Under the pieces are notes generated by a model. The model had not been told where the DNA came from and did no database searches. It saw nothing but the letters and a program-made list of their open reading frames with translations. From contig JAKAQO010000005.1 in the NCBI GenBank assembly GCA_021822495.1, positions 42,548 through 106,547 of the forward strand: a stretch of DNA of 64,000 nucleotides, in the 5' to 3' direction. Shown here in pieces: positions 31,238-50,706 of this stretch. The DNA comes from a bacterium (GTDB lineage Bacteria; Elusimicrobiota; Elusimicrobia; UBA1565; UBA9628). Positions within the stretch are counted from its first letter, which is position 1; the number at the start of each line of letters is the position of its first letter. The position numbers were made by a program, and so were the translations under genes.

Positions 31238-31249
31238 GGGGACTGTCCC
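31238..31249. repeat. Degenerate solitary REP core (GGGGACTGTCCC) without A/T tracts, in the divergent region between mgtA and the 31256 gene
   Basis: A 12/13 match to the REP core. Confidence 0.4.
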
Positions 31250-34372: not shown

Positions 34373-34497
34373 GGAAGAAAAAAAAGGGGACAGTCCCCTT
34401 TTCCTCATAAACTTAAGGTCGGGGACAGTGCCGTCCCTAAGAATTATGAAGAAGAGGCACAGTCCCCTTTTTTCTTCGTTATTTCTTCGTGATTGAT
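34373..34497. repeat. Composite 120-bp REP-containing leader element (copy 1), near-identical to 47086-47210
   Basis: Three REP-like cores (34386-34398; the variant GGGGACAGTGCCGTCCC at 34421-34437; GGCACAGTCCCC at 34456-34467) plus conserved flanks TTCTTCGTYATTTCTTCRTGATT. Confidence 0.6.
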
Positions 34498-34524: not shown

Positions 34525-37500
34525 ATGCGAAAAAAGAACATTTGTGAACTCGTCTCCGAAGGCGCCCAACAAAAACGTTCCCAAAAATTAGGAAGATGGG
34601 GACTCTCCCTAACTCTCCTCATTTTTCTCGCCGCCCAAGCAAAAGCACAGGTGCAAAATATTATCTCGACGCCGACCTATCCAGCCAACGGCTCTTATTT
34701 TAATCTGCAAAACCAAACGCCGAACTTTAACTGGTTCGGCCCTTCCACAACGACAATTCAATTAGCGACTTCTCCTGTTTACAATCTTCAGGTCGGCACT
34801 GACCCCACCTTTGCCGCCGGCCTTGTTATTAACGTGCAAATTGCCGCCGTGATCCCAAGCACCGGCCTCCCAAACGCTTATGGCTCCTACCTGTCTGGAA
34901 CTTCTCTAACCAATAACACCACTTATTATTGGCGCGTCTATGCGACAGATAGCTCCGGAGGCGAAAGTATGTCTTGGAGCACATTTAGCTTTGTGACTGA
35001 TTTTGCCCCTGATTCTAACCTTTCAGCATCTTACTCGGGAACGTTGAACTCTTTAGGACAGACTACTCCAGAAAACCAGTTTGTTTCTTTATCCAATGGC
35101 GCGACATCTCAATTATCCGTTTCGGCTTCATTCAGTGGGATTGCGGTTTCAAGCTCCGCCGTACCGTTAACCGGGGATAGCGCTAGTTTTACACAAGGAA
35201 CCAGCGGCTACGGTGTCCTCTATTCGACCAATTCCGGCACGACCTGGGAGGATTACTCCTCATTAGGCATAAATGTTCCAGCAGCTGGCGGTGGAGCTAC
35301 GATCTGGAATTTAGCTGTTTTTAACGGTTTTCTCTACGCTGGTCTAAGCAACGGTTCTATCATTCACACAAATAATGGAACGAGTTGGAATACGGATTAT
35401 ACTGGTTCAAATTATGGAATTGGTGGTTTTACCATATATAAAAACACTCTTTACGCCTCAAACCACGACGGTAGTAATGCGTATATGGTCTCAATTACCA
35501 ACGCTGGAACGGTCAACCGAGCCACTGTATTCAACTCTGGAGCGGGTGTGAGTAAACCAGTCGTTCTTAATAATACTCTTTTCGTCGAAGCTTCTTATAC
35601 TGGAATCCCCGCAGGAGATCCTGGAGCTGGCAACGCTGGAGGCGGAATTTTTGCGTCACAAGACGGCATCCATTGGGTTCAAACGTCCGGTGTTGGCGTA
35701 TGTAGCGACAACTTTGACCAGCTTTTTACATTTAATGGAGAGCTTTATGCAAATGTACAATCAGGGGGTTTTGGATGCAGCGGGTTATTCGTAAGCCCAG
35801 ATGGGGTCAATTGGACAACAATTGACAATCAAAGCGTTCCAGGAACTGTTAATACCGCCACAGTTTTTAATGGAAAACTTTATATTGGAGTAAACAATGG
35901 AGGCTCAAACCCGCTCCTCTATTCATCCACTAATGGGCAAAGCTGGTCAGCGGACAATGGAACACTGACCCAACCTTCCTTGGGGGGCAGTGTCAACGAT
36001 CTTAATGTGGTCAATGGCAAGCTTTACGCCGGTATTTCCACGACCACTGCCAGAATATATGTGACCGAGGATGGAAACAACTGGTTTCCATCAATTTCAG
36101 GCGGCACAGGACAAACAGGAGCAGGAGCGCCCGTTTATTTTAATGGGAATTTTTATGCCGCCGCTGGTCCCGATATCATCACCATCTCGCCCTTTAGCGC
36201 CTCTCTACCTGGTTCTAATGGAGAGCCTTCTGGAACGCTTTCTGCCGTCAGTCCGCAACTTGCCGCTTCAACCACGACAACTACTTGCGGCGGAGTGTCT
36301 CCTTGCAACGCAACCAACCAAGTCATATTTACCGCAAGCGATATGGCAGGAAACACCCTCATGTCTGGTCCTTATGCTATTTTAGTTGACACCGAGGTCG
36401 GGGTCGCCATTTCAACGCCCAGCTATCCGGGAACGCCGACAGTGGGACAGTCTCCTCCGGGGACAGTCCCTTACGTGAACGTTCAGCCCAATTTCGACTG
36501 GATTGGGCCTTCAACCGGGGTCGCTTCGGCTTTGCAGCAGCCCGCCAATTTTTTTCTTGAGGTCTCATCCAACGATCCAACTTTTTCGCCTTCTAATATT
36601 GTGATTAGCACCTCGACTCCGGTCGTCGTTTATTCCACCAATGTCCCCACCGCCAACGGAGCCTACCTTTCGCCTTACGTGCTGGGAAATAACACCACTT
36701 ACTATTGGCGCATCTATATAAAGGATAATCTGGGCGGAACCAGCCCCACATCCCCAACCTATAAATTTATCACGGATTTTGCTCAACCCGCAGTGTCCAC
36801 CTCCAGCTTTCAGAGCATCAATGCCCAAAGCTCGCTCTTACCGGAAAATCAGTTTAACGATCTCGCTTCGGGCGTCACCGCCCAAATTACGGTCCAAGAT
36901 ACTAATTCAGGCCTTGCCGTTTCGACCAGCGCGCTTTCTTTCGCGGGGGATGGACATGATGACCCTCCAATAACCTCGGGGTTTGGAATTATCTATTCCA
37001 CAAATGCCGGGTTCTCATGGATAGTGCAGTCCACCTCCGCTGAAGCCAACAACGGCAGCGCGGTGGGAACGGGAATTCGCTCATTAGCTGTATTTAATGG
37101 GGATATCTACGCTGGGGATTACAGCGGTCATGTCTATTACAGCGCCGACGGCAACACCTGGAGCGCGGGAACTCCCGGGACAAACCCCATTCAATCTTTA
37201 AGCGTCTTCAATGGAATCTTATACGCCGGAGACGGCGGAGGATATATTTACTCAAGTTCAAACGGCAGCACTTGGAGTACAACTAATGGCGGCTCTGCCG
37301 TTGGGGCAGGCATACTCGCAATGACCGTCTTTAACGGACAACTTTATGCCGGAGATAATTTTGCCCGCGTTTTTGTCATGGATGCAAGTGGAAATTGGCA
37401 TAACGTAGACGGCGGAACTGTTGGAACGAGTTCCATTGAATCCTTGGCCGCGTTCAACGGCCAACTCTATGCCGGAGATTATTATGGAAATATCTATGCC

Positions 37501-40500
37501 AGCACAAACGGAAGCTCTTGGAACAGTCTTGGAACTATCGGCAACTCCGGCTCTCTAATTGAGACCATGGCTGTTTTCAATGGAAAGCTTTACGCTGGAG
37601 ACAGTAATGGGTTTATTCATTTTAGCGCTAATGGAGCGTCATGGACCACCAGTAATAATGGAAGCGCTGTTGGATCTGGAATTACCGCTTTAACTGTCTT
37701 TAACGGCCAACTTTACGCTGTAGACGCTCTTGGTTATGTTCATATCAGCGCAGACGGAGTTCATTGGAACTCAATCAAGGTCGCTACGCAAGGAACGGGA
37801 TTAGCTGGATTTAATGGAAACCTCTATGTTGGCGACTATTACGGCGCCGTCTACAGAGCCATCCCTCTTGCCGCGACGCTTTCCGGGTCCGACGGGACAA
37901 CGGCCAGCCAAACCTTGTCGGCAAACAACCTCAATCTCGTTCAATCCACCACAACCGCGACCTGTGGCGGGACTTCGCCTTGCAGCGCGACCGATCAAAT
38001 CATATTTACCGCCTCTGATTTAGCAGGAAATGTCGTCGAAAGCGGGCCGTACGCGATTTTGGTAGACACCACCGTGGCGCCGGCGATTTCGACGCCTTCC
38101 TATCCTTTAAACGGAGCTTACCTCAATTTCAACCCTAATTTTAACTGGACCGGACCCTCAACCAGCATCGTCTCCGGGCTTTTGGCCCCTTCCTATTATC
38201 AACTTGAGGTTTCAAGCAATGATCCCACCTTCGCGACGGTCTTCGTCAATATTTCCACGCCCATTCCGCCGGTCAATACCGGTCTTTCCACCGATAACGG
38301 CGCCTATATTTCTACTTATACGTTTGCCAATCTGACCACTTATTATTGGCGCGTAAGAACTATTGATGGGTTCGGCGGAACCAGCCCCTGGTCCACAACC
38401 TTTAGTTTTACCACTGATTTCTCAAGTCCAACGGCCGTCGGCGGAAGTTTCGCGACGCTCAACAGTCTCGGGGGGCTTGTTCCAGAAAATCAGGTCACGG
38501 TTCTCCAGTCAGGCGTCACTGCTCAGATTAATATTACCGATATCGGTAGCGGGTTCTCCGCCTTTAATTCCTCAAATTATTCCGTCAGGTATTCCACCAA
38601 CGCCGGCCTCTCCTGGATTTCAGAACCCTTTTCCGCGCTCGCTTTTACGGGCTCTATCGGCCAAACCTCGACTCAAACCTTCACGGCCTACGGTCTTAAT
38701 CTCGCCGCCTCAACCAATTCTTATGTCTGCGGGGGAATTTCTCCTTGCGGCGCAACCAACCAAGTTGAATTTACTTTTTCCGATCAGGCCCTCAATTTCA
38801 GCACGGCCGGCCCTTTTGCCGTCATTGTAGATACTCATTCAACCGATGTTTTGGTCTCCACGGCCAATGTCGCGCCTTTGGGAATCCCCCAAAACACCTC
38901 GGTTGCCTTTATCCGCCTGACCTTGAACAGTCTCACTGGAACCGCACCCTGGACCGGGCTCACGGTTCAAAGGCTCGGCAGTGGAACGGACGCGGATGTT
39001 CAAAACGTCGCCATCTACCGTGATAACGCGGGAACCGGAATATTTTCTCCCTCGGATACTCAAATCACCCAAAATGCGGTCTTTTCGGGGGGAATCGTCA
39101 ATTTAACAATGACCAATCCCGAGAGTATTACGACCTCGACCAAGACCTATTTCCTTGTCTATACCGCGGCCCCGGGGGCGCTGGTCGGAGATGGGCTCGC
39201 GGCGGAAATTACATCAACCGCCTCTTTTACCTTCAGCAACGGATACCAGATGAGTTCGGCCCAGACGACGATTTATCCCTTGATCTCCAGCACCGCCACC
39301 GTGGTCGACGGTCCCAATTATCTCTACATCACTCCGGCGAGCCAAGCCCCCAACGATGCCCCGCCCGGAACAGCCAACATCGAGATGCTTTCTTTAAAAG
39401 CCTATACGAATACTGGAACAAGCACTCTTTCCAAAATTGTATTTCATCTCCTAGGAACCGGGGCTTCTAATGACATCAGCTCCATCTCCATCTACAGAGA
39501 CTCAAACGGCACTGGGGTTTATGCCCCCAATGACAGTTTGGTGACCAGCGGCTCGGACTCCTTTTTTAACGGAGTCTCAACCGTCGCTTTCACGACCACC
39601 ATCGCCTCCGAAACCGTGACCACCTCTCCCATTTATTATTTCGTCCTCATCAGCTTGTCTCCGAACGCGCCATTAGGAGATACCTTAGGAATATCTATTT
39701 CCACTACCTCGGACGTCGAGCTGATAGACGTCTTAGATACGACTACTTTTACGACCAGCCCCGCGGCCTCCTCTCTTTTGACCATTGAATACATCAATAC
39801 CTTGAACGTTCAGGGAGTCAACCAAATCCCGTCCTCCCTTTTACAGGGTCAGCAATACGCCATTTTAAAAGCGAGTTTTACGGTTTCGACTGGGGAAACT
39901 TCGTTTAACGGAATCACTATCACGCGCATAGGACTCGGCCATGATTCGGATGTTTCGGCCGTCAGGGTGTGGCAGGACCCCGCTCCACCCGAGACCTTTA
40001 ACCCCGCGACCTTTTTGCAGTTGAGTTCAGGAACCTTTGTGAACGGAAACGCGCAGCTAAACTTCCCGCTTCAAACCTTGTCCGCCGGAACCACCTACGT
40101 CTATTACGTGACCTATAACATTAGTCCCACCGCCCTTCAGGGAGACACCTTGGGCGGAAGAATTACCAGTAATCTCGATATCTCAGACACCAATCCCGGA
40201 ACGACGATTGTCGGCAATTTCTCGATTAATTCGGCCACTTCCCCCGTGGTTCCAACAACCGCAGGGCTTTTTGTCAGCGCTCAAAATGTCGCCCCGAGTG
40301 ATCTCTTGCAAGGCGCGACCAATCAACAAATGCTCAATTTGACGATGGATACCACTCAATACTCAGTTCTTTTGGGAGCTTTGACCTTTAATTCCTTGGG
40401 AACGGCTTCTTCTTCCGATATTTCGCGGGTGGAAGTCTACCAAGACCTCGTGGGAAACGGAATTTTAAATACATCGACCGACCCGCTTTTAAGCGCGGTT

Positions 40501-42159
40501 TCATACCCCTTTATCTCGGGAACCGGCATCATTCCCTTTTCGCCGGGAATCACCATCAGCACTATTCCCATCCGGCTTCTGGTCGCGGTAGACGTTTCAA
40601 CCGGAGCCAATTATCTCAACAATGATTTTGGAATCGGAATTTCAACTCCCGCCAATATCTCAATCAACGCGCCCAATTTTGTCGTTCCCTCAACCACCAC
40701 ATTCCCGGCCGATTCAAGTATTATTCCCATTACGAAAGCCCCGGATGTCATGAGCGTTTTCCCGACTTCCTTGATGGATGTCAACGGCGTCGTTCAAGGC
40801 CAAAACGCGCCGGCGGCGAAACTGAGTTTAGTCACCCAGCACAGTTCCGTGACCTGGACGACGATTTCCGTTCAAAGAAGCGGCACCCTGCCGGATTCGG
40901 GAGTTGATTCCGTCAATATTTATGACGACGTAGATCAAAATGGTGTTCTTGACTCTTCGGATGTCCTAGTGGGAAGCGCGCCCTTTGTTTCCGGAACAGC
41001 CAATATTTCTTTCTCCACCGCGCAACTGGTCAGCCCCGCAGGAGCGGATTATCTCATTACGCTTCAAATTGACCCTAACGCTACTCCGGGAGACACCATT
41101 GGAATTTCCTTGTCCGGCGTGTCCAACTTTACCGTGTTGCCCCCGGACACCGTCTCGGGTTCAAGCCTTCCGTTTAACTCGGCCTTAGGGCCGGTTCTCA
41201 ATATTAAAACTCCCACTCAACCCATCGTCACTTTCCCGAACGGAGATTATTCCAGCTCCTTTGATTCGGTCGGCTTTATCTGGTATTCAACGGTCGCCGT
41301 CGGTTCCATTTCCAGCGCGGCCTATGCCGTGGGAACGACTCCCGGGGGAACCGATATCGCGCCGTATACCGCCATTCCTTTTGCGGCGTCTAGTTTCACC
41401 GCGACCAATCTTCTCCTCTCTAACGGGGCCACTTATTATGTCTCGGTGGAAGCCACCTCTAACTACGGCTTTACCAGCCCGCCGGGAATCAGCCCCGGGT
41501 TTTTGGTTGATTTAATCACCCCAGGGTCGCCGACCAATCTCAGCGCCAATGTCGGCGTAAGCTCGATTTATCTGACCTGGGATCCGGGAACAGTCGGGCC
41601 CTCAGGCGCTTCGGGATATCTTCTCGAATATTCAGACGTCGAACATCCGACCTGGTATAACGCCAAGACCGGAGCGGTCACCGCCCTGGCCGCCGGCCCC
41701 CATGGAACTCTTTCGGCCAATTTCATTCCCTCTTCGCCGTTTTTGTTCAACAATCCGCCGCAAGGAACCCTTCTTTTCCGCGTTAGTTTAGTCAACGGCG
41801 CGGGGGTTCAAAGCGCCCCGTCCAATTCGATCAGGGTTCTCTTTGGAACGCAGTCAAACGCTGGAATATCGAACGTCTCATCCTATCCCAATCCCTTTAA
41901 CTCAAATTCCGGAGTCGCGACTATCGTCTACACCTTGGATACTCCGGGGAATGTCTCCATTCAAATCTACAGCGTCTTTGGGAGTCTCGTCAAAAGCCTC
42001 TCTTATTCTGGTGGAAGCGTGGGGGGGCAAGCCGGCGTCAATACCGTGACCTGGGACGGAACCGACTCAGGCGGACGCAAAGTCTCCAAGGGCATCTACA
42101 TCGCCGTCCTCAAAGCCAATGGTATGAGCGTCCAATACAAAATCGGGGTCAATCACTGA
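34525..42159 (+). CDS. Giant (2544 aa) secreted repeat-rich surface protein with Asp-box/BNR-like beta-propeller repeats, FN3/Ig-like modules and a T9SS-type C-terminal sorting domain
   Basis: A signal peptide is present. There are three super-repeats of about 560 aa, each with TTYYWR(V/I), S-x-(D/N)-G-x-(S/T)-W propeller repeats and the Cys motif CGG.SPC.AT.Q..FT.SD. Five repeats of about 125 aa follow (..IYRD.NGTG..). An FN3 domain is next (IYLTWDPG), and the protein ends in a C-terminal domain of type PNPFN..ATI.Y.L....V.I.IY...G.LV..L..G..WDG.D..G..V..GIY. Confidence 0.75.
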   Translation: MRKKNICELVSEGAQQKRSQKLGRWGLSLTLLIFLAAQAKAQVQNIISTPTYPANGSYFNLQNQTPNFNWFGPSTTTIQLATSPVYNLQVGTDPTFAAGLVINVQIAAVIPSTGLPNAYGSYLSGTSLTNNTTYYWRVYATDSSGGESMSWSTFSFVTDFAPDSNLSASYSGTLNSLGQTTPENQFVSLSNGATSQLSVSASFSGIAVSSSAVPLTGDSASFTQGTSGYGVLYSTNSGTTWEDYSSLGINVPAAGGGATIWNLAVFNGFLYAGLSNGSIIHTNNGTSWNTDYTGSNYGIGGFTIYKNTLYASNHDGSNAYMVSITNAGTVNRATVFNSGAGVSKPVVLNNTLFVEASYTGIPAGDPGAGNAGGGIFASQDGIHWVQTSGVGVCSDNFDQLFTFNGELYANVQSGGFGCSGLFVSPDGVNWTTIDNQSVPGTVNTATVFNGKLYIGVNNGGSNPLLYSSTNGQSWSADNGTLTQPSLGGSVNDLNVVNGKLYAGISTTTARIYVTEDGNNWFPSISGGTGQTGAGAPVYFNGNFYAAAGPDIITISPFSASLPGSNGEPSGTLSAVSPQLAASTTTTTCGGVSPCNATNQVIFTASDMAGNTLMSGPYAILVDTEVGVAISTPSYPGTPTVGQSPPGTVPYVNVQPNFDWIGPSTGVASALQQPANFFLEVSSNDPTFSPSNIVISTSTPVVVYSTNVPTANGAYLSPYVLGNNTTYYWRIYIKDNLGGTSPTSPTYKFITDFAQPAVSTSSFQSINAQSSLLPENQFNDLASGVTAQITVQDTNSGLAVSTSALSFAGDGHDDPPITSGFGIIYSTNAGFSWIVQSTSAEANNGSAVGTGIRSLAVFNGDIYAGDYSGHVYYSADGNTWSAGTPGTNPIQSLSVFNGILYAGDGGGYIYSSSNGSTWSTTNGGSAVGAGILAMTVFNGQLYAGDNFARVFVMDASGNWHNVDGGTVGTSSIESLAAFNGQLYAGDYYGNIYASTNGSSWNSLGTIGNSGSLIETMAVFNGKLYAGDSNGFIHFSANGASWTTSNNGSAVGSGITALTVFNGQLYAVDALGYVHISADGVHWNSIKVATQGTGLAGFNGNLYVGDYYGAVYRAIPLAATLSGSDGTTASQTLSANNLNLVQSTTTATCGGTSPCSATDQIIFTASDLAGNVVESGPYAILVDTTVAPAISTPSYPLNGAYLNFNPNFNWTGPSTSIVSGLLAPSYYQLEVSSNDPTFATVFVNISTPIPPVNTGLSTDNGAYISTYTFANLTTYYWRVRTIDGFGGTSPWSTTFSFTTDFSSPTAVGGSFATLNSLGGLVPENQVTVLQSGVTAQINITDIGSGFSAFNSSNYSVRYSTNAGLSWISEPFSALAFTGSIGQTSTQTFTAYGLNLAASTNSYVCGGISPCGATNQVEFTFSDQALNFSTAGPFAVIVDTHSTDVLVSTANVAPLGIPQNTSVAFIRLTLNSLTGTAPWTGLTVQRLGSGTDADVQNVAIYRDNAGTGIFSPSDTQITQNAVFSGGIVNLTMTNPESITTSTKTYFLVYTAAPGALVGDGLAAEITSTASFTFSNGYQMSSAQTTIYPLISSTATVVDGPNYLYITPASQAPNDAPPGTANIEMLSLKAYTNTGTSTLSKIVFHLLGTGASNDISSISIYRDSNGTGVYAPNDSLVTSGSDSFFNGVSTVAFTTTIASETVTTSPIYYFVLISLSPNAPLGDTLGISISTTSDVELIDVLDTTTFTTSPAASSLLTIEYINTLNVQGVNQIPSSLLQGQQYAILKASFTVSTGETSFNGITITRIGLGHDSDVSAVRVWQDPAPPETFNPATFLQLSSGTFVNGNAQLNFPLQTLSAGTTYVYYVTYNISPTALQGDTLGGRITSNLDISDTNPGTTIVGNFSINSATSPVVPTTAGLFVSAQNVAPSDLLQGATNQQMLNLTMDTTQYSVLLGALTFNSLGTASSSDISRVEVYQDLVGNGILNTSTDPLLSAVSYPFISGTGIIPFSPGITISTIPIRLLVAVDVSTGANYLNNDFGIGISTPANISINAPNFVVPSTTTFPADSSIIPITKAPDVMSVFPTSLMDVNGVVQGQNAPAAKLSLVTQHSSVTWTTISVQRSGTLPDSGVDSVNIYDDVDQNGVLDSSDVLVGSAPFVSGTANISFSTAQLVSPAGADYLITLQIDPNATPGDTIGISLSGVSNFTVLPPDTVSGSSLPFNSALGPVLNIKTPTQPIVTFPNGDYSSSFDSVGFIWYSTVAVGSISSAAYAVGTTPGGTDIAPYTAIPFAASSFTATNLLLSNGATYYVSVEATSNYGFTSPPGISPGFLVDLITPGSPTNLSANVGVSSIYLTWDPGTVGPSGASGYLLEYSDVEHPTWYNAKTGAVTALAAGPHGTLSANFIPSSPFLFNNPPQGTLLFRVSLVNGAGVQSAPSNSIRVLFGTQSNAGISNVSSYPNPFNSNSGVATIVYTLDTPGNVSIQIYSVFGSLVKSLSYSGGSVGGQAGVNTVTWDGTDSGGRKVSKGIYIAVLKANGMSVQYKIGVNH

Positions 42160-42827
42160 TATGAAAAAAAGGGGACAGTCCCCTTTTTGGGGGAAATCTC
42201 GAAAAAGGGGACTGTCCCCTTTTTTGGCCGCCCGATGCGGCGCTCAAGCCCCATTTCCTCTCTTATCTCTTGCTCACGCTCACCACCATACACTATTTCT
42301 TTATAAAAATAAGCCCTCTCCTGGGCAGAATTTCCAAGAGATAAATAACCTGGGCTTTCCTCCAGAAAAGGGGACTGTCCCCTTTTTCCTGTATAGAATC
42401 CATAGCTGGACCAAGAGTAATCTTCCGGTTTTTTCACGATGGCTGCGCGAACGGGGTTTAACTCAATATAACGGCCACAGAAAAGCAGGCTTCTCTCCGT
42501 TGGCAACAAGACGCTTTTATAACGCCCCTGCCAGAGATGACCCACCAGAGAATTTTTTCCTCGGAAATAATCGGAATATCCCTGCAAAAGTCTTTGCATC
42601 GCCTTACCCAGGTCTTCCGCTTTTTGAACTTGAGCTAAGAAATGAACATGATTTGGCATTAGGACATAATGATACAGGTGAAAAGGATTTTTTTTCTTCG
42701 CCCATTTCAGAAGAGCTAAGAATTTTTCATAATCTAAATCTTCCTGAAATATCTTCTGTCGGTTATTCCCACGAGCCATCAGATGATAAAACATTCCCTC
42801 AAGCACATTTCTCCTCTGTCTTGGCAT
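42153..42827 (-). CDS. IS200/IS605-family Y1 tyrosine transposase of the REP-associated type (RAYT)
   Basis: The HuH motif is MPNHVHFL and the catalytic Tyr context is GHLWQGRYKS. One REP (42370-42382) is inserted in frame, giving GKRGQSPF. The ORF has no stop until it has read through the downstream REP doublet (..KKGTVPFFEISPKKGTVPFF). Confidence 0.7.
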   Translation of the reverse strand: MPRQRRNVLEGMFYHLMARGNNRQKIFQEDLDYEKFLALLKWAKKKNPFHLYHYVLMPNHVHFLAQVQKAEDLGKAMQRLLQGYSDYFRGKNSLVGHLWQGRYKSVLLPTERSLLFCGRYIELNPVRAAIVKKPEDYSWSSYGFYTGKRGQSPFLEESPGYLSLGNSAQERAYFYKEIVYGGEREQEIREEMGLERRIGRPKKGTVPFFEISPKKGTVPFFSYQ

Positions 42828-42960
42828 ATCACCCCTCCTTTCCGCCTAGATTCTCTGCTATATTTCATACGGCAGAAACACAAAAAAAGTTCCCTCAAAA
42901 AAAGGGACAGTCCCTTTCTCGGTTAAAATTCCTAAAAAAAGGGACTGTCCCTTTTTTCTT
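42161..42960. mobile_element. RAYT-REPIN unit: RAYT gene flanked by inverted REP doublets (42165-42235 and 42897-42960)
   Basis: Downstream doublet cores are at 42171-42183 and 42207-42219. Upstream doublet cores are at 42904-42914 and 42941-42951. This is the classical genomic context of REP-associated tyrosine transposases. Confidence 0.6.
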
Positions 42961-44485
42961 ATTTCTACTTCTCTCTTCCATATCGGCTTCCGCAGCCAGC
43001 AGCTTCTATGCCGGTTCTCCTAACGAAATTTTCCAGTTCGGAGCTGACGCCAGGGCCATGGGAATGGGAAACGCTTATACCGCAATCGCTGGCGGCGCGT
43101 CTTCTCTTTACTACAACCCCGCAGGACTCGGCCTTCTCAATGGTCCCGATATCAGCGCCATGCAGGCCAGTCTCATTGGCGGCGCGGCTTATGAAAATTT
43201 ATCCTATGCCCAGAATTTTTCAAAGATGCCTGGAGCTTGGGGAGTTGAAGCCCTCAACATGGGCGTTGGAGGGGCCGAGCAAAGGGACTCTCAAAATAAT
43301 TTGACCGGAAGTTTTGGCTTTCAAGAAACCGGATATGGAGCGGGATTTGGATTGCGAAATGTCGTCATTCCAGGTTTATCATTGGGAGGATCTTTCCAAG
43401 GGCTCAGCCGAAGCTTAGGTGGAAGTTCTTCCGACATGCTCTATGGAGCCAATCTCGGCGCCCAATACGGCCCTTTTTTTGATAATATGGTGACCGCCGG
43501 ACTCGTTCTCCAAAACGGCTTTAACGGAGCGCAAAACACCTTTGACCGGTTGCCTACGGTTCTACGCGCGGGCCTGGCCGTCACTCCCATCGACAATCTT
43601 CTTATCTCCGCGGACTATGGAAACGACGGAGATTATGGAATAGGCGCGGAATATAGAATATGGATGTTCGCCCTGCGAGCCGGATATATGCCGGAAGGCC
43701 TCACCTTTGGCGCTGGAATCTATTATAAATCAATGGAAGCCGATGTCGCGATGGTCAATGATCCGATTTTTGGAATGGGGGAGCGGTTTTCGATCAACTA
43801 CCGATTCGCGGGGAAGAAAAAAGAAAAGCCTCTCCAGACTTATACCAACAGTTATCTTGACGCCGCGAAAAAAGAACTTAATATTCGCAATTACCTCAGC
43901 GCGCAACTGGCTCTTGAAGAAGCGATGGGGATTGATCCAACCCAGATTCCCCAAATATGGAAGGAAAAACTCAAACTTCTTCAAGCGTTCAATCAATATT
44001 TAGATCTCAAGAATCGACCGGATGAGGTTAAGACTCTTCTCGCTAATGATCCGGCGGCGATACTCGCCCAAAAATCGATTTTTTCTTATTTAGAGGGGCG
44101 TGACGGCGATGCGATGATTTGGGCCTCCGTGGCCGCTGGAACGGCTCATAAATCCATGCCCTATATTGACTTTATCAAGACAATGGCTTATCTTACGAGT
44201 ATGAAGGTTTCGGAAGGAGATTTGTTGCCGCCGGCCGAATATGTTTCCAAAAAAATGGAGACTGCTCTTCAGGACATTTATCAAAAACGCTTCGCGAATT
44301 CAGTCAGAGATTGCCAACAGGCCATTGTGGTCAACCCGAAAGAATCTTCCGCCTGGACTCGTCTTGGCAGCGCTTATTTTGCCTGGGGACACAAACAAGA
44401 AGCCAAAAAGGCTTATCAAAAAGCCCTGGAGCTCGATCCCAAGGATGAAAATCTTAAGAAATTCATGGAGATCTATATCAAATGA
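42956..44485 (+). CDS. Outer-membrane beta-barrel protein with a PorV/PorQ-like N-terminal motif and C-terminal TPR; 5' start unresolved
   Basis: The signal-peptide-like segment KKGTVPFFLFLLLSSISASAASS is partly encoded by a REP. It is followed by FGADARAMGMGNAYTAIAGGASSLYYNPAGLG and Gly-rich beta-strands, with TPR at the C-terminus. No ATG/GTG/TTG start exists between the REP doublet and this segment. The frame is open back to 42161, antisense to the RAYT gene. Confidence 0.45.
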   Translation, partial: FLFLLLSSISASAASSFYAGSPNEIFQFGADARAMGMGNAYTAIAGGASSLYYNPAGLGLLNGPDISAMQASLIGGAAYENLSYAQNFSKMPGAWGVEALNMGVGGAEQRDSQNNLTGSFGFQETGYGAGFGLRNVVIPGLSLGGSFQGLSRSLGGSSSDMLYGANLGAQYGPFFDNMVTAGLVLQNGFNGAQNTFDRLPTVLRAGLAVTPIDNLLISADYGNDGDYGIGAEYRIWMFALRAGYMPEGLTFGAGIYYKSMEADVAMVNDPIFGMGERFSINYRFAGKKKEKPLQTYTNSYLDAAKKELNIRNYLSAQLALEEAMGIDPTQIPQIWKEKLKLLQAFNQYLDLKNRPDEVKTLLANDPAAILAQKSIFSYLEGRDGDAMIWASVAAGTAHKSMPYIDFIKTMAYLTSMKVSEGDLLPPAEYVSKKMETALQDIYQKRFANSVRDCQQAIVVNPKESSAWTRLGSAYFAWGHKQEAKKAYQKALELDPKDENLKKFMEIYIK

Positions 44486-44552
44486 AAAAAAGGGGACAGT
44501 CCCCTTTTGGGGACATTTCTTTAAAAAAGGGGACAGTCCCCTTTTTTCTTTG
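44483..44552. repeat. REP doublet in direct orientation (cores 44492-44504 and 44529-44541, both GGGGACAGTCCCC)
   Basis: Both central bases are A, whereas the other doublets are inverted (A...T). The doublet follows the stop of the outer-membrane protein gene. Confidence 0.55.
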
Positions 44553-44561
44553 GAGGTTGTC

Positions 44562-47075
44562 ATGGACATATTAATGATTATTTTTATCCCAAGTCTTTTT
44601 CTTGTGTTGGGAGCCCTGATGTTTATCGTCAGCCGGGTCATGGAGTTTTCACAATCCAACCGTTATTTCGCAAAACAACGAGGAAACAGTCTTATGTTTA
44701 CACGTTTCATGACTCAAATCGCCATAGCGAAAAGCCAACTGGGAAAAAGGGCCCAGGAACTGGAAGCCCTCTCCATGCGTCTTCAAATGAACAATGAAGA
44801 GCTCGCGAGGCTCAACAATCTCAAGATGAAATTTCTTTCCATGGCGGTTCATGATATTCGAAACCCCTTGACCGCCATTACCGGCTATAGCGATATCCTG
44901 TCTCGCAACAAAAATATTGGTCCGAAAGAACAAGTCCTCTCGAAAATGATCTTGACCGCGACGCGGCAAATCAACCACCTCATGGGCGACTTGACCGATC
45001 TGGCCGTCATCGAAGCGGGAAAATTCAAGATGGAAATGGCGCCCTTTGATCTGGCCGGACTCATCCAAGAAGTCGGCGCGACGCTGGCTCCTGGAGCCTC
45101 TAACAAAGGCGTCATTCTTTCTGTTCTGGAACCTCCGTCGGGAATCATCATCACCGCCGACCGCTACCGCATTTGGCGCGTTTTGACGAATCTTTTAGGC
45201 AACGCCGTCAAATTTACTCCCTCGGGCGGCCGCGTTGAACTGAGAGCCGAAGTCGCGGCGGGAATGGCCATGATTTCCGTTCAAGATAATGGTCCCGGAA
45301 TTCATCCCACCGAACGCCGAAAAATTTTTGAAAAATTCTACCAGTCAAAGCACATCAAGGATGAAAAGGCCCGCAAGGGCGGCTGGGGGCTGGGACTCGC
45401 CATCGCCCAAGAAATTGTTCAAGCTCACGGAGGGGAAATTGGGGTTGACAGCCGCGGTCTCGGGCATGGATCCACTTTTTGGGTTCGCATTCCTCTTAAA
45501 GCTCGGCGCCCCATTCGCTCTAGCCCCATGCGCCTTTCTCTTGCTTTAATCGGGTTTTTAGCTCTTTCTTTTATTCCGAAAAAAACTGGGGCTCAAACTG
45601 TTCCCTTTCTTGAAAAATCCAAGTTCGAGAAATCCCTAGAAACCAAGGTGGACGGGGTTCTCCTCAATATCCTGGGGCCCAATCGGGCCAAGGTCATCAT
45701 CAACGCGACCTTAAACTTTACCAAGACGGAAAGTTTTCAAACCGAAGGCGCAAGCGTCACAACCACAAAAACCTCGGGGCTACCTTATCTCTGGCAAGAG
45801 CCCAGCAAAACGGCGCAGCCCGAAGAACTTCTTCCTGGAGTGCCGCTTGATTCCGGAGGCCCTGCTCTTCCCATGCCACCGCCGTCAATTAAGGGATATA
45901 AAAAAGAAGATTCCTTTCCCGCCGAATTTATCAAGAGGTTGGATGTCACTCTCATTTTGGACAATTCCGTTAAGGGAAATCGCAGCGCCGAAATCGGCAA
46001 AATTACATCCGACCTTCTCAATCTCAATCCCAAACGGGGGGATTCTTTAACCGTGGTCCACACCGAGTTTTCTCCTATTTGGAAAACCGTCTGGTATTCT
46101 CCGGCCACTGCGGGCATGCTTCTTAAATATATTTTGACCGGGTTTCTCTTTTTCATGGCCTTGATCGTCATCGCTATCGGATTCATAAAAATCGCCAACG
46201 CCATGCGCATGATGGCTAACGCCCAAGCTCAGCAAATTTCCATGGAAATGAAGGGACTCGATGGCGAGGGGGGAAGCGGACCAGGAGGGCTTTTAGGACA
46301 CAATACGCTCATGATTGGGGATCAAAAATCAGGAGAAAACGTCCCTGAGAATAAAAATGAACCCGTCATGTTCGACGTAGGGATGGATCAGGTAGAAACC
46401 CTGGCTCAAATGCTTCTCCCCGAACCGGCCAATAACATTGCCATTGTCGCGTCCCGCCTAACCCCGGATGTTTCGAAAAGACTCATTGAGGCCCTTCCCC
46501 CGGAACTGGCGACGCAAGTCATCAGCCAACTCGCTCGTCCGCGCTTTATCGATCCGGAAATTATCGTCAACTTAAAGGAAGAGCTGGAACGGCGTCTTTC
46601 CGGCGCGGTGGGAGGCGTTCATTATCTCTCGGAACTCATGTCGGCCGCCAGCCAAAAGAGGCGCCATGAGATGCTCGAAGCCGTTCGCGCGCAAAACCCG
46701 AACCTCGCGGAAGAACTTAGAAAAAGAGTCTTTTTCATCGAGGATCTTTCAAAGCTGAGCCAACAGGAATGGTCATACCTCTTATCCTTGGTCACCTATC
46801 AAGAATGGAGTGCGGCCCTTCATGAGGGACCCCAAGTGGTCGTCGAAGCCATTAAGCAAAATCTATCGGAAAAAGCCTGGGGGGTTCTTAGCGAAATGAT
46901 TGAAACGGCTTCTCCCAGCATAGAACAAGCGGAAATAGCGCAAGACAAAATCGGTCAAAGCGTCTCGGAACTCATCAAGGAACAGAGAATCAAGACCATC
47001 GCACCACAATTGGGACTTCAGGTTCATGAATCTCCAATTGAGGAAGAAAAAGGCGCAGAAAGCAACAAAAAGTAA
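44562..47075 (+). CDS. Multidomain fusion of a membrane histidine kinase (HisKA + HATPase_c), a FliF/SctJ-like periplasmic ring-building segment with a TM anchor, and a FliG (rotor/switch protein) middle + C-terminal domain
   Basis: GGAGG lies 6 nt upstream of the ATG at 44562. The kinase motifs are the H-box AVHDIRNPLTAITGYSDIL, the N-box LLGNAVKFT, and the G-boxes DNGPGI and GWGLGLAIA. There is no stop after the kinase. A signal/TM-like segment MRLSLALIGFLALSF (ATG 45528) is followed by about 200 periplasmic residues, then the TM segment LLKYILTGFLFFMALIVIAIGF. The FliG-like region is LPPELATQVISQLA...EELERRLSG.VGG...NPNLAEELRKRVFFIEDLSKLS..E..YLLS.V....AL......V.EAIKQNLSEKAW.VL.E.....SIEQAEIAQ. 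Alternatively these are two genes, with the second starting at 45528. Confidence 0.6.
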   Translation: MDILMIIFIPSLFLVLGALMFIVSRVMEFSQSNRYFAKQRGNSLMFTRFMTQIAIAKSQLGKRAQELEALSMRLQMNNEELARLNNLKMKFLSMAVHDIRNPLTAITGYSDILSRNKNIGPKEQVLSKMILTATRQINHLMGDLTDLAVIEAGKFKMEMAPFDLAGLIQEVGATLAPGASNKGVILSVLEPPSGIIITADRYRIWRVLTNLLGNAVKFTPSGGRVELRAEVAAGMAMISVQDNGPGIHPTERRKIFEKFYQSKHIKDEKARKGGWGLGLAIAQEIVQAHGGEIGVDSRGLGHGSTFWVRIPLKARRPIRSSPMRLSLALIGFLALSFIPKKTGAQTVPFLEKSKFEKSLETKVDGVLLNILGPNRAKVIINATLNFTKTESFQTEGASVTTTKTSGLPYLWQEPSKTAQPEELLPGVPLDSGGPALPMPPPSIKGYKKEDSFPAEFIKRLDVTLILDNSVKGNRSAEIGKITSDLLNLNPKRGDSLTVVHTEFSPIWKTVWYSPATAGMLLKYILTGFLFFMALIVIAIGFIKIANAMRMMANAQAQQISMEMKGLDGEGGSGPGGLLGHNTLMIGDQKSGENVPENKNEPVMFDVGMDQVETLAQMLLPEPANNIAIVASRLTPDVSKRLIEALPPELATQVISQLARPRFIDPEIIVNLKEELERRLSGAVGGVHYLSELMSAASQKRRHEMLEAVRAQNPNLAEELRKRVFFIEDLSKLSQQEWSYLLSLVTYQEWSAALHEGPQVVVEAIKQNLSEKAWGVLSEMIETASPSIEQAEIAQDKIGQSVSELIKEQRIKTIAPQLGLQVHESPIEEEKGAESNKK

Positions 47076-47085
47076 AAGAAGAAAA

Positions 47086-47210
47086 AAAAGGGGACAGTCC
47101 CCTTTTCCTCATAAACTTAAGGTCGGGGACAGTGCCGTCCCTAAGAATTATGAAGAAGAGGCACAGTCCCCTTTTTTTCTTCGTCATTTCTTCATGATTA
47201 AATGCCGCTT
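47086..47210. repeat. Composite 120-bp REP-containing leader element (copy 2), near-identical to 34373-34497
   Basis: About 115 bp are near-identical to copy 1, including the variant core GGGGACAGTGCCGTCCC (47125-47141). Confidence 0.6.
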
Positions 47211-47228
47211 TTGTTCTACCCTATAACT

Positions 47229-48173
47229 ATGAGTGAAAGTCCAAAAGGTTCTATCTTTTCCTCATTAAGGGCATTAGAGGAAGTTCTGGAAGAAACTCCC
47301 ACTGCAATACCTACTCCGCAAAACGTTTCTCCCGCTCCTGTTCAAGCCGCACCACCGCCACCCACTCCCACGCCCATGAGTTCAACGCCGCCCGTTGATT
47401 CTTCAAGCGAAGCTCTCAAATCCGTGGAAGCAAAGATTGAAAAAATCGATCAAAAAATTCAGGAATTAGGAAATCTCCCAATCTCGCCAAATCTTGATCG
47501 CATTGAAGCTCTTGAGAAAAACCTACAACAGATGCAGGAGCGGGCCATCCAGGCAGAAGTTGCGCTCAGAGAACGAGAAAAATCCCAAGAAGCCGCAAGA
47601 CGTGAGACAGAATCTCTTCTTCAAAATCTAGCATCCCAAAGACGACTCGAAGAATCCGACAGGCAAATGAAGGAGAACCTGTCCTACTGCCGGCACCGCA
47701 TCGAGGAATTAGAAGAGCGGCAAGCCTCTCTCAAAATTTCAGATACGCAACAGTCGGAGCATGAGTTTAAATCGCTCTTAAAAAATTTTATGGAACAAAT
47801 CGACCTTAAAACAGCCCCGATTTTAACGTCTCTCCTTGAACTCAAGAAAGAGAATCAAAACCGCGAAAAAGAGAGTCTCAATATGGAAAAAAGGATAGGC
47901 CATCTTGAAACCAAAACCGCTAATAAAAGCCAAGTTGACGCTCTGCGCGAAGACTTCCTCCATTTAAAACAGTCCGTGGAAAAAATTAATTTGGAAACAT
48001 CGGAAAAGCTCGATAAAATAACCGCGGCATTAAGCCTATTGTCGCTTAAACTCCACAAAGATAAGGCAACAGAAGAATTAATCATTCTCGATAAAGAGTT
48101 TCAAAAAATACACTCTATTCTCAACGCCAATATTTCCAACTCTCCCAAACAAACAGGAATAGCCCCTGATTGA
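47229..48173 (+). CDS. Pro-rich N-terminus plus long coiled-coil protein (function unknown; placed in the motor-like cluster)
   Basis: A PAPVQAAPPPPTPTP segment is followed by heptad-rich sequence with abundant E/K/L/Q. The start at 47229 is the second in-frame Met; the ORF tracker starts at 47202. Confidence 0.4.
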   Translation: MSESPKGSIFSSLRALEEVLEETPTAIPTPQNVSPAPVQAAPPPPTPTPMSSTPPVDSSSEALKSVEAKIEKIDQKIQELGNLPISPNLDRIEALEKNLQQMQERAIQAEVALREREKSQEAARRETESLLQNLASQRRLEESDRQMKENLSYCRHRIEELEERQASLKISDTQQSEHEFKSLLKNFMEQIDLKTAPILTSLLELKKENQNREKESLNMEKRIGHLETKTANKSQVDALREDFLHLKQSVEKINLETSEKLDKITAALSLLSLKLHKDKATEELIILDKEFQKIHSILNANISNSPKQTGIAPD

Positions 48174-48211
48174 TTTGGAATTCTCTTTTCTTTCCTTATA
48201 TAATAGGCATC

Positions 48212-48949
48212 ATGGAACTGACATCGATTATCGGCCTTGGAGCAATTTTAACTCTAACCGCAATTGGGCTCGCCACGGGAGGGCTCCCGGCGGTTTTCAT
48301 CAACTGGCACGGAATCGGCATCGTCCTGGGCGGCACTTTTTGCGCCTTGATGATTAACACTCCCCTGGATATCTTGCTCAGAACTGGAGCGGCTATAACA
48401 GATTTAGTTTCAGCCGATCCTTACGTCGATCGCATCGCCCTTGTGGACGCGATCATGGCCTTGGCTCAAGAGGTTCAATCCCGAGGAATCAGCGCCTTTA
48501 ACAACGTCAACAAAACGGTTGCCGCTGGGTATCTCGCTTATGCCGCTCAAATTGCCGTCGAATACAATAATCCTGAAACCCTCCGGCAGGTCCTGGAAAA
48601 TGAGATTATTCAAAACTCCGATTTACAAAATGAAGCGGTCAACGTTTTTAGAACCGCAGGAATTTTGGCGCCGATGTTTGGGCTTTTAGGGACCTTGATC
48701 GGAATTGTCGAAGTTCTGCGCCAAATCGCCAACCCCGCTCAAGTAGGCTCCGCCATGGCAGTCGCCATTACTACCGCTTTTTATGGTATTGCGACGGCTA
48801 ACGTTTTTTGCGTGCCAATAGCTGGGAAATTGAGAATCAGGTATTGGAGAGAAACGCAGGCTAAAACCATGGTTTTAGAAGGCGTCTATGAAATTCTTCA
48901 ACGAACGCCCACCGTCATCATCTCCAGGAAACTAAAATCTTATTTATGA
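48212..48949 (+). CDS. motA: MotA/PomA-type proton-channel stator subunit
   Basis: Four TM helices with a large cytoplasmic loop. The TM3-TM4 core is APMFGLLGTLIGIVEVL...AMAVAITTAFYGIATAN. I chose the ATG at 48212; the ORF tracker's TTG is at 48170. Confidence 0.65.
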   Translation: MELTSIIGLGAILTLTAIGLATGGLPAVFINWHGIGIVLGGTFCALMINTPLDILLRTGAAITDLVSADPYVDRIALVDAIMALAQEVQSRGISAFNNVNKTVAAGYLAYAAQIAVEYNNPETLRQVLENEIIQNSDLQNEAVNVFRTAGILAPMFGLLGTLIGIVEVLRQIANPAQVGSAMAVAITTAFYGIATANVFCVPIAGKLRIRYWRETQAKTMVLEGVYEILQRTPTVIISRKLKSYL

Positions 48950-48975
48950 TAAAAAAGGGACAGTCCCCTTTTTCT
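48950..48975. repeat. REP (core GGGACAGTCCCC, 48957-48968) between motA and motB
   Basis: An intra-operon copy, so perhaps an attenuator rather than a full terminator. Confidence 0.5.
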
Positions 48976-48980
48976 TGATT

Positions 48981-49673
48981 ATGAGACGATCACGGCACGA
49001 AGACCTCGAAAATCAACTCGCGAAATCCGCCCAATGGGCTATTACCTACGGCGATTTCATGAGCTATCTCATGATTTTCTTTCTCATCATGTTCTCTTTT
49101 ACGCTCTCCAAATCCGGAGGGAAAACCACGGAAAACGTTAAATATCAGGAATCCTTGATTAAAATCCAGAAAGTCTTTGGGGGAAAAGGAAGCTCCCTGG
49201 ATTACGATCGCCTCATTAAGCGCGAAAAAGAAGAGTCCATGGTGACCCAACTCAAACAGGCTCTGGACAAGAAAGACTTGTCCAAATACGCGAAAATAGA
49301 AACCTGGGATAAAAAAATTCGATTAATTCTCGCTAGCGCGGTTCTTTTCGATTCAGGGCGAGCGACCTTGGCCCCGCGCTCGGAAAAAATTCTGGCCGCC
49401 GTCGCCCAACAGCTTAAGACTTTGGACAACCCCATTCAAATTGAAGGCCATACCGACAACGTGCCAGTTCGCGGCGGACGTTATAAGTCCAACTGGGAAC
49501 TTTCGATGGCGCGGGCTTATTCCGTGCTGGTCTTTTTGGAAAAGCAGGGCATCGCGCCTCAGCGCTTATCCGCGATTGGCTACGGCAAGTATCATCCCAT
49601 TGCCGACAACAACACCGCGGAAGGACGCGCTAAAAATCGTAGAATCGAGATAGATTTATTACGGACAGAATGA
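48981..49673 (+). CDS. motB: MotB-type stator subunit (single TM with a conserved Asp plus an OmpA-like peptidoglycan-binding domain)
   Basis: AITYGDFMSYLMIFFLIMF carries the channel Asp. The C-terminal OmpA-like region is ILASAVLFDSGRATL...IQIEGHTDN...NWELSMARA...NRRIEI. Confidence 0.7.
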   Translation: MRRSRHEDLENQLAKSAQWAITYGDFMSYLMIFFLIMFSFTLSKSGGKTTENVKYQESLIKIQKVFGGKGSSLDYDRLIKREKEESMVTQLKQALDKKDLSKYAKIETWDKKIRLILASAVLFDSGRATLAPRSEKILAAVAQQLKTLDNPIQIEGHTDNVPVRGGRYKSNWELSMARAYSVLVFLEKQGIAPQRLSAIGYGKYHPIADNNTAEGRAKNRRIEIDLLRTE

Positions 49674-49686
49674 GGAGAAATTAAAT

Positions 49687-50706
49687 ATGAAAAAGTCATT
49701 TGCGGTTCTATCTTTGAGCCTAGTTTTGTCGACGCTCGCTTTTTCAGCAGTCTCATCGCAAGCGAATAATTCAACAAGCTCTCCCGCCCAAGGGGCCACG
49801 GTCCCACATCCAAAAATTCCTCAGGATCCTTATCTGACAGCTCTTGACGATATCAAAAGTCCCATTCCCTCGGTTCGCTTAGCAGCCGTTCAAGTCTTGT
49901 CCCAAAACCGCAATCCCGCCTCTATCGCGCCTTTGACAAAAGCCCTTTCCGATAAAAGTCCGGCTGTCTGCGCCGCCGCGATTCACGCCTTGGGCCTTTT
50001 GAGGGTTAAAGCCGTGGCTCCAAAAATCGCGCAACTGCTCGCCACTTCCCCGTCTTCCCAAGTGAGGCAAAATGCGGCCGTCGCCTTGGCTTATCTGGCT
50101 GACCCGGCGGCCATCCCCACTTTAATTTCCGCCATATCCGATTCGCATCAAAGCGTTCGCTATGCGGCAATCAAAACTTTGGGCAGTCTCCACGCCCAGG
50201 CCGCGGTACCCGCCCTCATCAACACGCTCAAAAGTTCCAACGCTAATATTCGAGAGACTGCCGCCGCGGCCTTGGGGCAAATTCAATCTCCTCAAGCCTC
50301 CTCCGCTCTTGCCGGTTTGACGACCAATCCCAACATCCAGGTCCGGGAAGCCGCCGTCATCGCGCTGGGCTCGACCGGAGGCAAGGCCGCTATTTCTCCA
50401 CTTCTCAAGGCGCTTAAAGACGCGAATTTTTCCGTCAGCCTTGACGCAGCGCGTTCTCTTTCAAAACTGGGAAATTTTAAGGGAAAAAGCGTCGCTCTCA
50501 AAGGACTTAGCCAAAAAGATCCCTTTCTTAGGCAAGAAGCCGTTACAATTTTAGGAATGACCGGAGGGAAAAAATCTCTCCGGGCTATTGAAAAGCTCTC
50601 TAAAAAAGAAAAGGATCCCGCGACGATTAGCCTGATTGGCTTTGCCGAAGCCCAGATTAAGGGACGCCTCGGAATCAAACCCGCACCGCAATCGCGTAAG
50701 AAATGA
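49687..50706 (+). CDS. Secreted HEAT/PBS-lyase-like repeat protein
   Basis: A signal peptide is present, followed by about nine repeats of type VR..A..AL....A...L...L.D.... Confidence 0.55.
   Translation: MKKSFAVLSLSLVLSTLAFSAVSSQANNSTSSPAQGATVPHPKIPQDPYLTALDDIKSPIPSVRLAAVQVLSQNRNPASIAPLTKALSDKSPAVCAAAIHALGLLRVKAVAPKIAQLLATSPSSQVRQNAAVALAYLADPAAIPTLISAISDSHQSVRYAAIKTLGSLHAQAAVPALINTLKSSNANIRETAAAALGQIQSPQASSALAGLTTNPNIQVREAAVIALGSTGGKAAISPLLKALKDANFSVSLDAARSLSKLGNFKGKSVALKGLSQKDPFLRQEAVTILGMTGGKKSLRAIEKLSKKEKDPATISLIGFAEAQIKGRLGIKPAPQSRKK

Follow-up and report, generated by a model that had tools for sequence, protein, structure and literature searches.

A 64,000-nt stretch of genomic DNA from an Elusimicrobia bacterium carries a gene for a HUH/Y1 tyrosine transposase-like protein of the RAYT (tyrosine transposase associated with REPs, or repetitive extragenic palindromes) or TIRYT type, together with an abundant short palindrome that flanks the gene on both sides and is also read in frame within it. 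This stretch, hereafter the window, comprises positions 42,548-106,547 of the forward strand of contig JAKAQO010000005.1 in assembly GCA_021822495.1 (GTDB lineage Bacteria; Elusimicrobiota; Elusimicrobia; UBA1565; UBA9628). Our results make it probable that the gene encodes a vertically inherited, domesticated Y1 enzyme residing in its own REPtron, that the palindrome is the cognate repeat of this enzyme and that the internal copy was acquired once.

The Transposase Gene and Its Inheritance

The gene lies at 42153-42827 on the minus strand, is intact and encodes 224 aa; it is the single RAYT gene copy in the window. An initial annotation, made from the letters alone, had called it a RAYT-type Y1 protein and proposed a profile search. 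This identification is upheld by profile, sequence and fold. The protein clearly matches Pfam Y1_Tnp (PF01797; 53.7 bits, cutoff 23), passes NCBIfam REP_Tyr_transpos (NF047646) narrowly with a score of 82.4 against a cutoff of 80, and fails the NCBIfam IS200 model NF033573 (16.5 bits, cutoff 55). Its sole sequence match among solved structures is E. coli TnpAREP (4ER8), at 18% identity, and the same structure (4er8_A) is the best Foldseek match (E 8.9e-10) of an AlphaFold (AF2) model with a mean pLDDT of 85.5.

The HUH motif that had been reported, NHVHFL, is present as N59-H60-V61-H62-F63-L64 (42636-42653, minus strand); it aligns with the HMH of TnpAREP, and both H60 and H62 are invariant in 25 homologues. 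The catalytic tyrosine is predicted to be Y120 of the Y motif YIELNP (aa 120-125; 42453-42470, minus strand), which aligns with Y115 of 4ER8, the catalytic tyrosine of TnpAREP according to Messing et al. (PMC3479197). In the same alignment, N124 corresponds to the metal ligand N119 and P125 to P120, and the position of the TnpAREP metal ligand H123 is occupied by A128. The initial annotation had instead assigned catalysis to the motif WQGRY. This is ruled out by the 4ER8 alignment, which points to Y120, and by the variability of position 103, the tyrosine of WQGRY, where many homologues, and E. coli TnpAREP too, have F. The motif (aa 99-103; 42519-42533, minus strand) is the conserved 'W motif' strand and has no catalytic tyrosine.

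A Y---NP signature defines class 2 of the TnpAY1 enzymes (PMC6006769). Within this class, subclass 2.1 is characterized by the motifs NHVH, W[EQ] and YIELNP, an SS tail and a median length of 238 aa (Table 1, PMC6006769); it corresponds to Bertels group 1 and has been equated with the TIRYTs of Di Nocera et al. 2013 (PMC6006769). The window protein has NHVH at aa 59-62, WQ at aa 99-100, YIELNP at aa 120-125 and WSSY at aa 139-142, followed by a conserved C-terminal extension ending in RGRPKK, and by these motifs it is assigned to subclass 2.1 (TIRYT type). IS200/IS605 TnpA (subclass 1.1) is a core-only, multicopy protein of about 150 aa with a Y---Q motif and subterminal imperfect hairpins, from which the window protein differs in its Y---NP, its 224 aa and its one copy in the window; from subclass 2.4 it differs in its Y motif, YIELNP, and in an internal repeat that lies 22 residues past this motif. 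The resemblance of subclass 2.1 C termini to helix-turn-helix (HTH) domains consists of weak profile matches (Bac_DnaA_C, HTH_23, HTH_28). A Pfam scan of the window protein at E <= 0.1 found only Y1_Tnp matches and no C-terminal HTH-like domain; the AF2 model has three short helices at aa 159-191.

Orthologues were found in three further species, all Elusimicrobia-type metagenome-assembled genomes (MAGs), with identities to the window protein of 70% (L001, in three assemblies), 63% (L006) and 64% (L004). A GTDB scan yielded L006 and L005, the latter the same as L001, and L004 came from a contig search; a scan of JGI metagenomes gave 80 loci, all with at most 52% identity, and no further members of this clade. 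The gene order giant gene, RAYT, outer membrane protein (OMP)-TPR and HisKA-FliG is common to the four species, and because of this shared synteny we regard the RAYT as probably vertically inherited. The open reading frame (ORF) is intact in all four species, with all family-invariant residues retained. Relative to the three orthologues, dN/dS is 0.04-0.12 in the protein core and 0.2-0.35 downstream of the internal repeat; the latter values indicate that translation carries on through the repeat. Synonymous sites of the RAYT differ at 60-81% among the four species. Nonsynonymous changes in this gene accumulate 3-6 times faster than in the housekeeping genes at 44565-52718 (dN of 0.15-0.20 versus 0.02-0.07 for the same species pairs).

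An Abundant Palindrome Flanks the Gene and Extends Its Reading Frame

The core GGGACWGTCCC occurs 26 times in the window, as against 0.02 copies expected from shuffles. A-run and T-run flanks accompany 23 of the 26 cores, giving a canonical form, A5-7 GGG(G)AC[A/T]GTCC(C)C T4-7, that is a perfect palindrome of 21-25 nt around a single center base and has a density of about 0.36 copies per kb. Most canonical copies sit 5-15 nt past stop codons, and their layout of A-run, GC hairpin and T-run reads alike in both directions. The GT[AG]G head (GTAG or GTGG) of canonical REPs, located 5' at the base of an imperfect hairpin, was found on none of the repeats in the window, which are perfect palindromes with A/T runs. 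The repeats that the initial annotation called REPs belong to an abundant palindrome that clusters at the gene but are not GTAG REPs, the core fitting instead the TIRYT end motif GGGGWSAS.

Fourteen of the 23 canonical copies are paired in seven doublets, with center spacings of 28 or 36-37 nt. Six of these are inverted pairs in which an A-center is followed by a T-center on either strand (23208/23236, 26226/26263, 28511/28548, 42172/42208, 42904/42941 and 59176/59204); the exception is 44493/44530, and the order T-center then A-center is never seen in the window. The doublet spacers are unrelated to each other in sequence. Three of the seven doublets lie within 2.4 kb at the RAYT gene, and two of these are the doublets that had been described on either side of it. 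The 5' doublet (42897-42957) consists of copies at 42897-42917 and 42934-42957, with cores at 42904-42914 and 42941-42951; it lies 70 nt upstream of the ATG, and its copies carry GGGACAG. The 3' doublet (42164-42225; copies at 42164-42188 and 42202-42225, cores at 42172-42182 and 42208-42218) falls within the last 21 codons of the gene and is also directly downstream of a convergent gene of 2544 aa. Its two copies can pair with each other in a 24-bp hairpin (-30.2 kcal/mol, z -8.4). The third doublet of this local cluster, at 44486-44546, was found in the repeat scan. Upstream repeats are present in 4 of 4 species, followed by a conserved motif, AGGGAAC.

The palindrome has no stop codon in any of its six frames, and hence the RAYT ORF runs through both 3' copies. 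As the initial annotation had stated, no stop occurs before the end of the 3' doublet: the first in-frame stop is the TGA at 42153-42155. It forms part of a 7-nt overlap, TCACTGA (42153-42159), that contains the stops of both convergent ORFs and is also found in L001. The A-run of the inner 3' copy encodes the KK of a family-wide motif, GRPKK, after which the four orthologues have 21, 8, 6 and 1 residues; in the AF2 model, the tail (aa 205-224) is predicted to be disordered (pLDDT < 50). A 960-nt RAYT region is identical across four contigs (817 nt were compared for the short Logan contig) that derive from separate assembly or run records, two of them ENA assemblies and the others an NCBI MAG and a Logan run, so that read-through into the repeat is independent of any single assembly.

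A Copy of the Palindrome Is Conserved in Position within the Gene

One canonical copy, AAAAGGGGACTGTCCCCTTTTT on the plus strand, lies inside the gene at 42366-42387, with its core at 42371-42381; this copy is an exact match to the repeat consensus of the window. The in-frame internal repeat of the initial annotation is hereby confirmed: it is read as GKRGQSPF (G147-KRGQSP-F154). No other canonical copy of the 23 lies deep within a long ORF. As single-stranded DNA, this copy is predicted to fold into a hairpin of -9.1 kcal/mol (z -3.8), and aa 147-154 are a coil in the AF2 model with a pLDDT of about 93. The eight encoded residues had been taken for an insertion. This is ruled out by an alignment of 25 sequences, in which the loop between the WSSY helix and the conserved P159 is present in every homologue and the window protein shows a net gain of one residue.

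The orthologues L001, L006 and L004 carry the core GGGACAGTCCCC at the same site and with the same center base, and in all four species it begins 23-24 nt past the conserved TGGTCCAG. The frame in which it is read is GGA CAG TCC CCT in the window and L001 and GAC AGT CCC in L004 and L006, where flanking indels restore the reading frame of the gene (-1/+1 nt in L004, -1/+10 nt in L006). The peptides encoded at this site also differ (GKRGQSPF, GEKGQSPF, RKGDSPLF and GNRDSPHF). In L004, both arms of the internal copy have the flank flavor AAATA...ATTT of the other copies on that contig, a paired change. Synonymous sites of neighboring housekeeping genes differ at 45-77% between these genomes; at this divergence, and at the 60-81% seen in the RAYT itself, a neutral 12-mer would not survive, which argues that it is the DNA, rather than the peptide, that is conserved.

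Beyond the clade, an 11-mer test of 82 loci, with low power on short contigs, gave real hits only in the four clade members, and a search for GGGGWSAS inside 103 distinct genes gave 2 hits outside the clade, versus about 15 expected under uniform base composition. The most parsimonious reading of these comparisons is that the internal copy was acquired once, in the ancestor of the four-species clade, and that it took the place of the loop instead of simply being inserted.

Perfect cores with variable flanks are also found at orthologous intergenic sites. A repeat between motA and motB is shared by the window, L001 and L006, one between the HisKA and OMP genes by the window, L006 and L004 (not L001), and one upstream of the giant gene by the window and L006. 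The L004 flavor forms a weak hairpin (-4.9 kcal/mol) with a broken or poor T-run; z scores for the internal copy are -1.9 in L004 and -0.8 in L001.

The Palindrome Matches the End Motif of TIRYT Genes

TIRYT genes are flanked by terminal inverted repeats (TIRs) that share the motif GGGGWSAS (PMC3733652). In the 3' and internal copies, the palindrome core has as its left half GGGGACAG, which fits this motif, so that the palindrome can be viewed as two overlapping inverted copies of the TIRYT end motif. In L007, an Elusimicrobia homologue with 45% identity, AAAAGGGGACAGACCCCTTTT lies 5 nt before the ATG and an inverse copy covers the GRPKKKGSVPF codons; this repeat is one base from the window palindrome. 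In homologues from other phyla, GGGGACAC or GGGGTCAG is found upstream, and an inverse copy follows 1-40 nt past the stop. Overall, the end motif is found upstream in 17 of 83 loci, as compared with about 5 expected by chance. These occurrences, in L007, in other phyla and across the 83 loci, indicate that the association between enzyme and repeat is old. From this association we infer that the enzyme may mobilize the repeat family.

Other Repeats and Neighboring Genes

A 100-nt unit is present twice at 100% identity (34374-34473 and 47078-47177). Both sites are intergenic, one upstream of the giant gene and the other after the HisKA-FliG gene, and the unit combines one canonical repeat with a degenerate GGGGACAGTGCCGTCCC and half of a further repeat, giving it the look of a bacterial interspersed mosaic element (BIME). 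Its duplication suggests recent copying. A second flavor of the core without A/T runs, (A)ATTAGGGACAGTCCCTAATT, is found at 31239-31249 and 56912-56922 in the window and at 3855 in L001; the L001 copy lies at the motA-motB site, where the window copy (48957) has the canonical A-run, showing that flanks change in pairs. Bare cores without A/T runs also occur inside coding sequence, at 36460-36470 in the 2544-aa gene and at 5363 and 11106 in L001. The first of these is preceded by a near-copy, GGGACAGTCTCC, and encodes GQSPPGTVPY. Such cores could be old repeat remnants or chance matches. The window has three tRNA genes, all on the minus strand (10057-10143, 12728-12799 and 56808-56879), two of which are adjoined by repeats, at 10155 and 56912; an Rfam scan of the window returned only these tRNAs and no RNA family over the repeat. 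A terminator scan caught only some of the repeats, as its stem and loop rules are a misfit for a 1-nt center, and was not used as evidence.

The convergent neighbor of the RAYT, a giant gene of 2544 aa at 34525-42159 (plus strand), encodes a secreted-looking protein. Inside it are three direct repeats (D6-D8), each about 1.7 kb long, and its only Pfam hits, to Ig or beta-propeller families, are faint; in the window and L001, the stop of this gene shares 7 nt with that of the RAYT. This protein and the OMP are also fast evolving, with 50-69% aa identity versus 88-97% for housekeeping genes.

The openness of the palindrome in six frames has further consequences in the window. The plus-strand ORF at 25523-26284 passes through another doublet (26219-26279) before its stop and ends in the tail ...EKGDSPLFHENGGKRGLSPFL*. 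On the strand opposite the RAYT, a spurious ORF of 774 aa (42161-44485, plus strand) is held open; we rejected it as an artifact of open repeats and the antisense RAYT frame, the real OMP/TPR gene extending only from about 43000. The signal peptide of the OMP (KKGTVPFF...) is partly repeat encoded: its start region (42934-43060, plus strand) specifies a signal-peptide-like KKGTVPFFLFLLLSSISASA that is conserved at the protein level in L001 and derives in part from the repeat at 42934-42957. For this gene, the window lacks any ATG, GTG or TTG in frame from 42821 to 43057; L001 offers a TTG in the doublet spacer, and L004 an ATG upstream of its single repeat. Gene callers begin it at an internal MGMGNAY, and the signal peptide is lost.

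Discussion

We propose that the palindrome is the substrate of the enzyme encoded by the gene it surrounds. If it behaves like TnpAREP and IS608 TnpA, this enzyme would recognize the palindrome as a hairpin of single-stranded DNA and, by means of Y120 and the HUH-bound metal, would cleave and rejoin DNA beside it, as has been shown for those two. Such activity may have spread the palindrome, as singlets and inverted doublets, to its present density. Repeats located past stop codons may also act as bidirectional terminators, as their A-run, hairpin and T-run would permit. The repeat at the 3' end would always have abutted the gene; in the window lineage it overlaps the GRPKK codons, and loss of a nearby stop would have allowed translation to continue into a disordered, non-conserved, repeat-encoded tail. 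The internal copy would have taken the place of a loop of equal length, variable and tolerant of insertions, that joins the catalytic core to the C-terminal helices, and would then have been held at the DNA level like other copies of the family, while compensating indels saved the frame. The core is most likely maintained as a site that the enzyme must still recognize, which would permit feedback on its own gene or continual re-homogenization. It is conceivable, though we are doubtful, that the internal palindrome is a functional cognate site in its own right, whose recognition the enzyme has to retain, for example for throttling its own expression or as a protected 'master copy', and that selection ties together enzyme specificity, repeat flavor and internal site.

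Several points weigh against a cognate enzyme-repeat pair with a specially maintained internal copy. The repeats have neither a GT[AG]G head nor a bulge by which the strand and the site of cleavage could be chosen. The spacers of the doublets are unrelated, unlike those of classical REPINs, which are copied as one unit. Subclass 2.1 has been reported to be without associated REPs (Quentin 2018, PMC6006769). The weak hairpin of the L004 flavor argues that termination alone would not be the conserved function. Positional conservation of the internal copy is known from four species only. Finally, intergenic cores are kept equally well, and hence the preserving force appears to be family wide and the internal copy is not demonstrably special. 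Enzyme recognition, hairpin or terminator function, or homogenization could each preserve all of the cores. The conservation of the orthologous intergenic copies has made a function peculiar to the internal copy seem less likely to us.

It is also possible, although we would not favor it, that the internal palindrome is a selected cis-regulatory element. It might be an operator or a hairpin to which the enzyme itself binds in a negative feedback, an intragenic attenuator that gives rise to non-stop transcripts if translation lags, or a reserve terminator that stops antisense transcripts coming from the convergent 2544-aa gene. The retention of core nucleotides in two frames despite a neutral divergence of at least 45-77% is what such an element would show, as are the paired flank change in L004, which keeps the arms complementary, the standing of this copy as the only canonical one deep in a long ORF and an A-run, hairpin and T-run readable in both directions. 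These arguments are offset by the equal preservation of orthologous intergenic copies, by the short or broken T-runs after the internal hairpin (TTTTC in the window, ATTTC in L004) and by the weak hairpins in L004 and L001.

An improbable alternative is that the palindromes are the standard intrinsic terminators of this lineage, or a binding site for a host protein, and that the Y1 gene is unrelated to their spread. The location of most copies just past stop codons with a terminator-like architecture, their persistence at orthologous intergenic sites across species and the report that subclass 2.1 is not REP-associated would all accord with this. Convergence, however, would not give 23 near-identical palindromes of 21-25 nt or a 100-nt duplicate without a single difference; the core fits the end motif of which inverted copies flank homologous genes in several phyla; the gene has three of the seven doublets clustered around it and, in four species, a copy inside it; and the L004 flavor is a poor terminator, yet it is maintained.

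We consider it very unlikely that the internal copies are independent, recent insertions into a hotspot in each species through cis-acting local hopping. Repeats do generally cluster at RAYT genes, in-frame insertions recur in subclass 2.4 tnpAREP genes, the reading frame of the core varies between species, and the internal flank flavor in L004 is that of the other copies on its contig. But the position (within 1 nt) and the center base are the same in all four species; the lack of a net length gain relative to outgroups would require four equal-length replacements; and no empty site was seen within the clade, nor a filled one among some 100 genes of more distant origin. Decay of the gene into a pseudogene after repeat invasion and stop loss, or an assembly artifact behind the read-through, is largely refuted: the disordered 21-residue tail and a nonsynonymous rate 3-6 times that of the neighbors might be taken to favor it, but the ORF is intact with its invariant residues in four species, dN/dS is low both in the core and past the repeat, and the sequence recurs in four separate-record contigs, with the L001 form in three assemblies.

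Much of what we describe for a cognate enzyme-palindrome pair has precedents. RAYT genes flanked by inverted REPs have been described (PMC2817692), as have clusters of REPs around the gene, termed the 'REPtron'; TIRs that overlap the 3' end of the gene and self-complementary, dimer-forming TIR families are also known (PMC3733652), and REPs in frame inside tnpAREP genes have been published for subclass 2.4 (Quentin 2018, PMC6006769). The closest relatives are the subclass 2.1/TIRYT genes with their 'TIRtron' (PMC6006769, PMC3733652), which share with the window gene the motifs NHVH, WQ, YIELNP and WSSY, a length of about 224-238 aa, a conserved C-terminal extension, and flanking inverted copies of a GGGGWSAS-type motif, the 3' copy of which abuts or overlaps the stop; some of their TIR families are likewise self-complementary, moderately abundant and present as dimers. 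The window differs in having a perfect palindrome with A/T runs at about 0.36 per kb, one copy of it inside the gene, and no HTH-like Pfam domain detected in the C terminus; for this subclass, Quentin et al. report no REP-like sequences. E. coli TnpAREP (subclass 2.2, 4ER8) has the same fold, alignable HUH and Y---NP motifs and genome-abundant inverted repeat pairs that cluster at its gene (the REP/BIME REPtron). However, E. coli REPs are imperfect palindromes, and their GTAG head and bulge, both absent from the window repeats, set the strand and cleavage site; the C-terminal region of the window protein is longer and different, identity is 18%, and H123 is replaced by A128.

In subclass 2.4 tnpAREP genes (Quentin et al. 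2018), as here, the cognate repeat is carried in frame in a peripheral, permissive region of the protein. There, in contrast, the Y motif is YIxNNP; the repeat in the window gene is located past the Y motif, brings no net gain in length, does not belong to the GTAG REPs and keeps its position across species. Tolerance of in-frame palindromes in coding regions and protein termini is also known for the RPE (Rickettsia palindromic elements) and for intragenic REPs (Di Nocera 2013, PMC3733652), and the window repeat similarly contributes coding sequence to a signal peptide and to a second C-terminal tail. The RPE, which are true insertions of greater length, are not known to have a dedicated enzyme, whereas here the host gene encodes the presumed mobilizing enzyme. 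What is new is the link between a subclass 2.1/TIRYT-type gene and a terminator-like palindrome of very high abundance that is made from the end motif of this gene; such a pairing in Elusimicrobia; an internal copy past the Y motif without net length gain; and the retention of its position in four species despite frame changes and 45-77% synonymous divergence.

These observations carry a warning for annotation, as repeats that are open in six frames extend or seed ORFs, generating tails, signal-peptide starts and, in this window, a 774-aa antisense ORF. The chief example of a transposase that was domesticated along with its non-autonomous elements is provided by RAYT/REP systems. Among their groups, subclass 2.1 (TIRYT) ranks second in size, is the least understood and has been reported without REPs; the locus described here is a clear case, from an uncultured phylum, of a TIRYT-type enzyme tied to an abundant palindrome derived from its own end motif. 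It offers a compact pair of substrate and enzyme, a 21-25-nt hairpin and a 224-aa protein, and a natural experiment on the matching of repeat and enzyme. If the internal site is functional, this would be the first RAYT-type gene with a conserved, co-evolving cis-site in its own reading frame, and it would mean that enzymes of subclass 2.1/TIRYT, supposedly REP-less, are able to drive a repeat family of high copy number.

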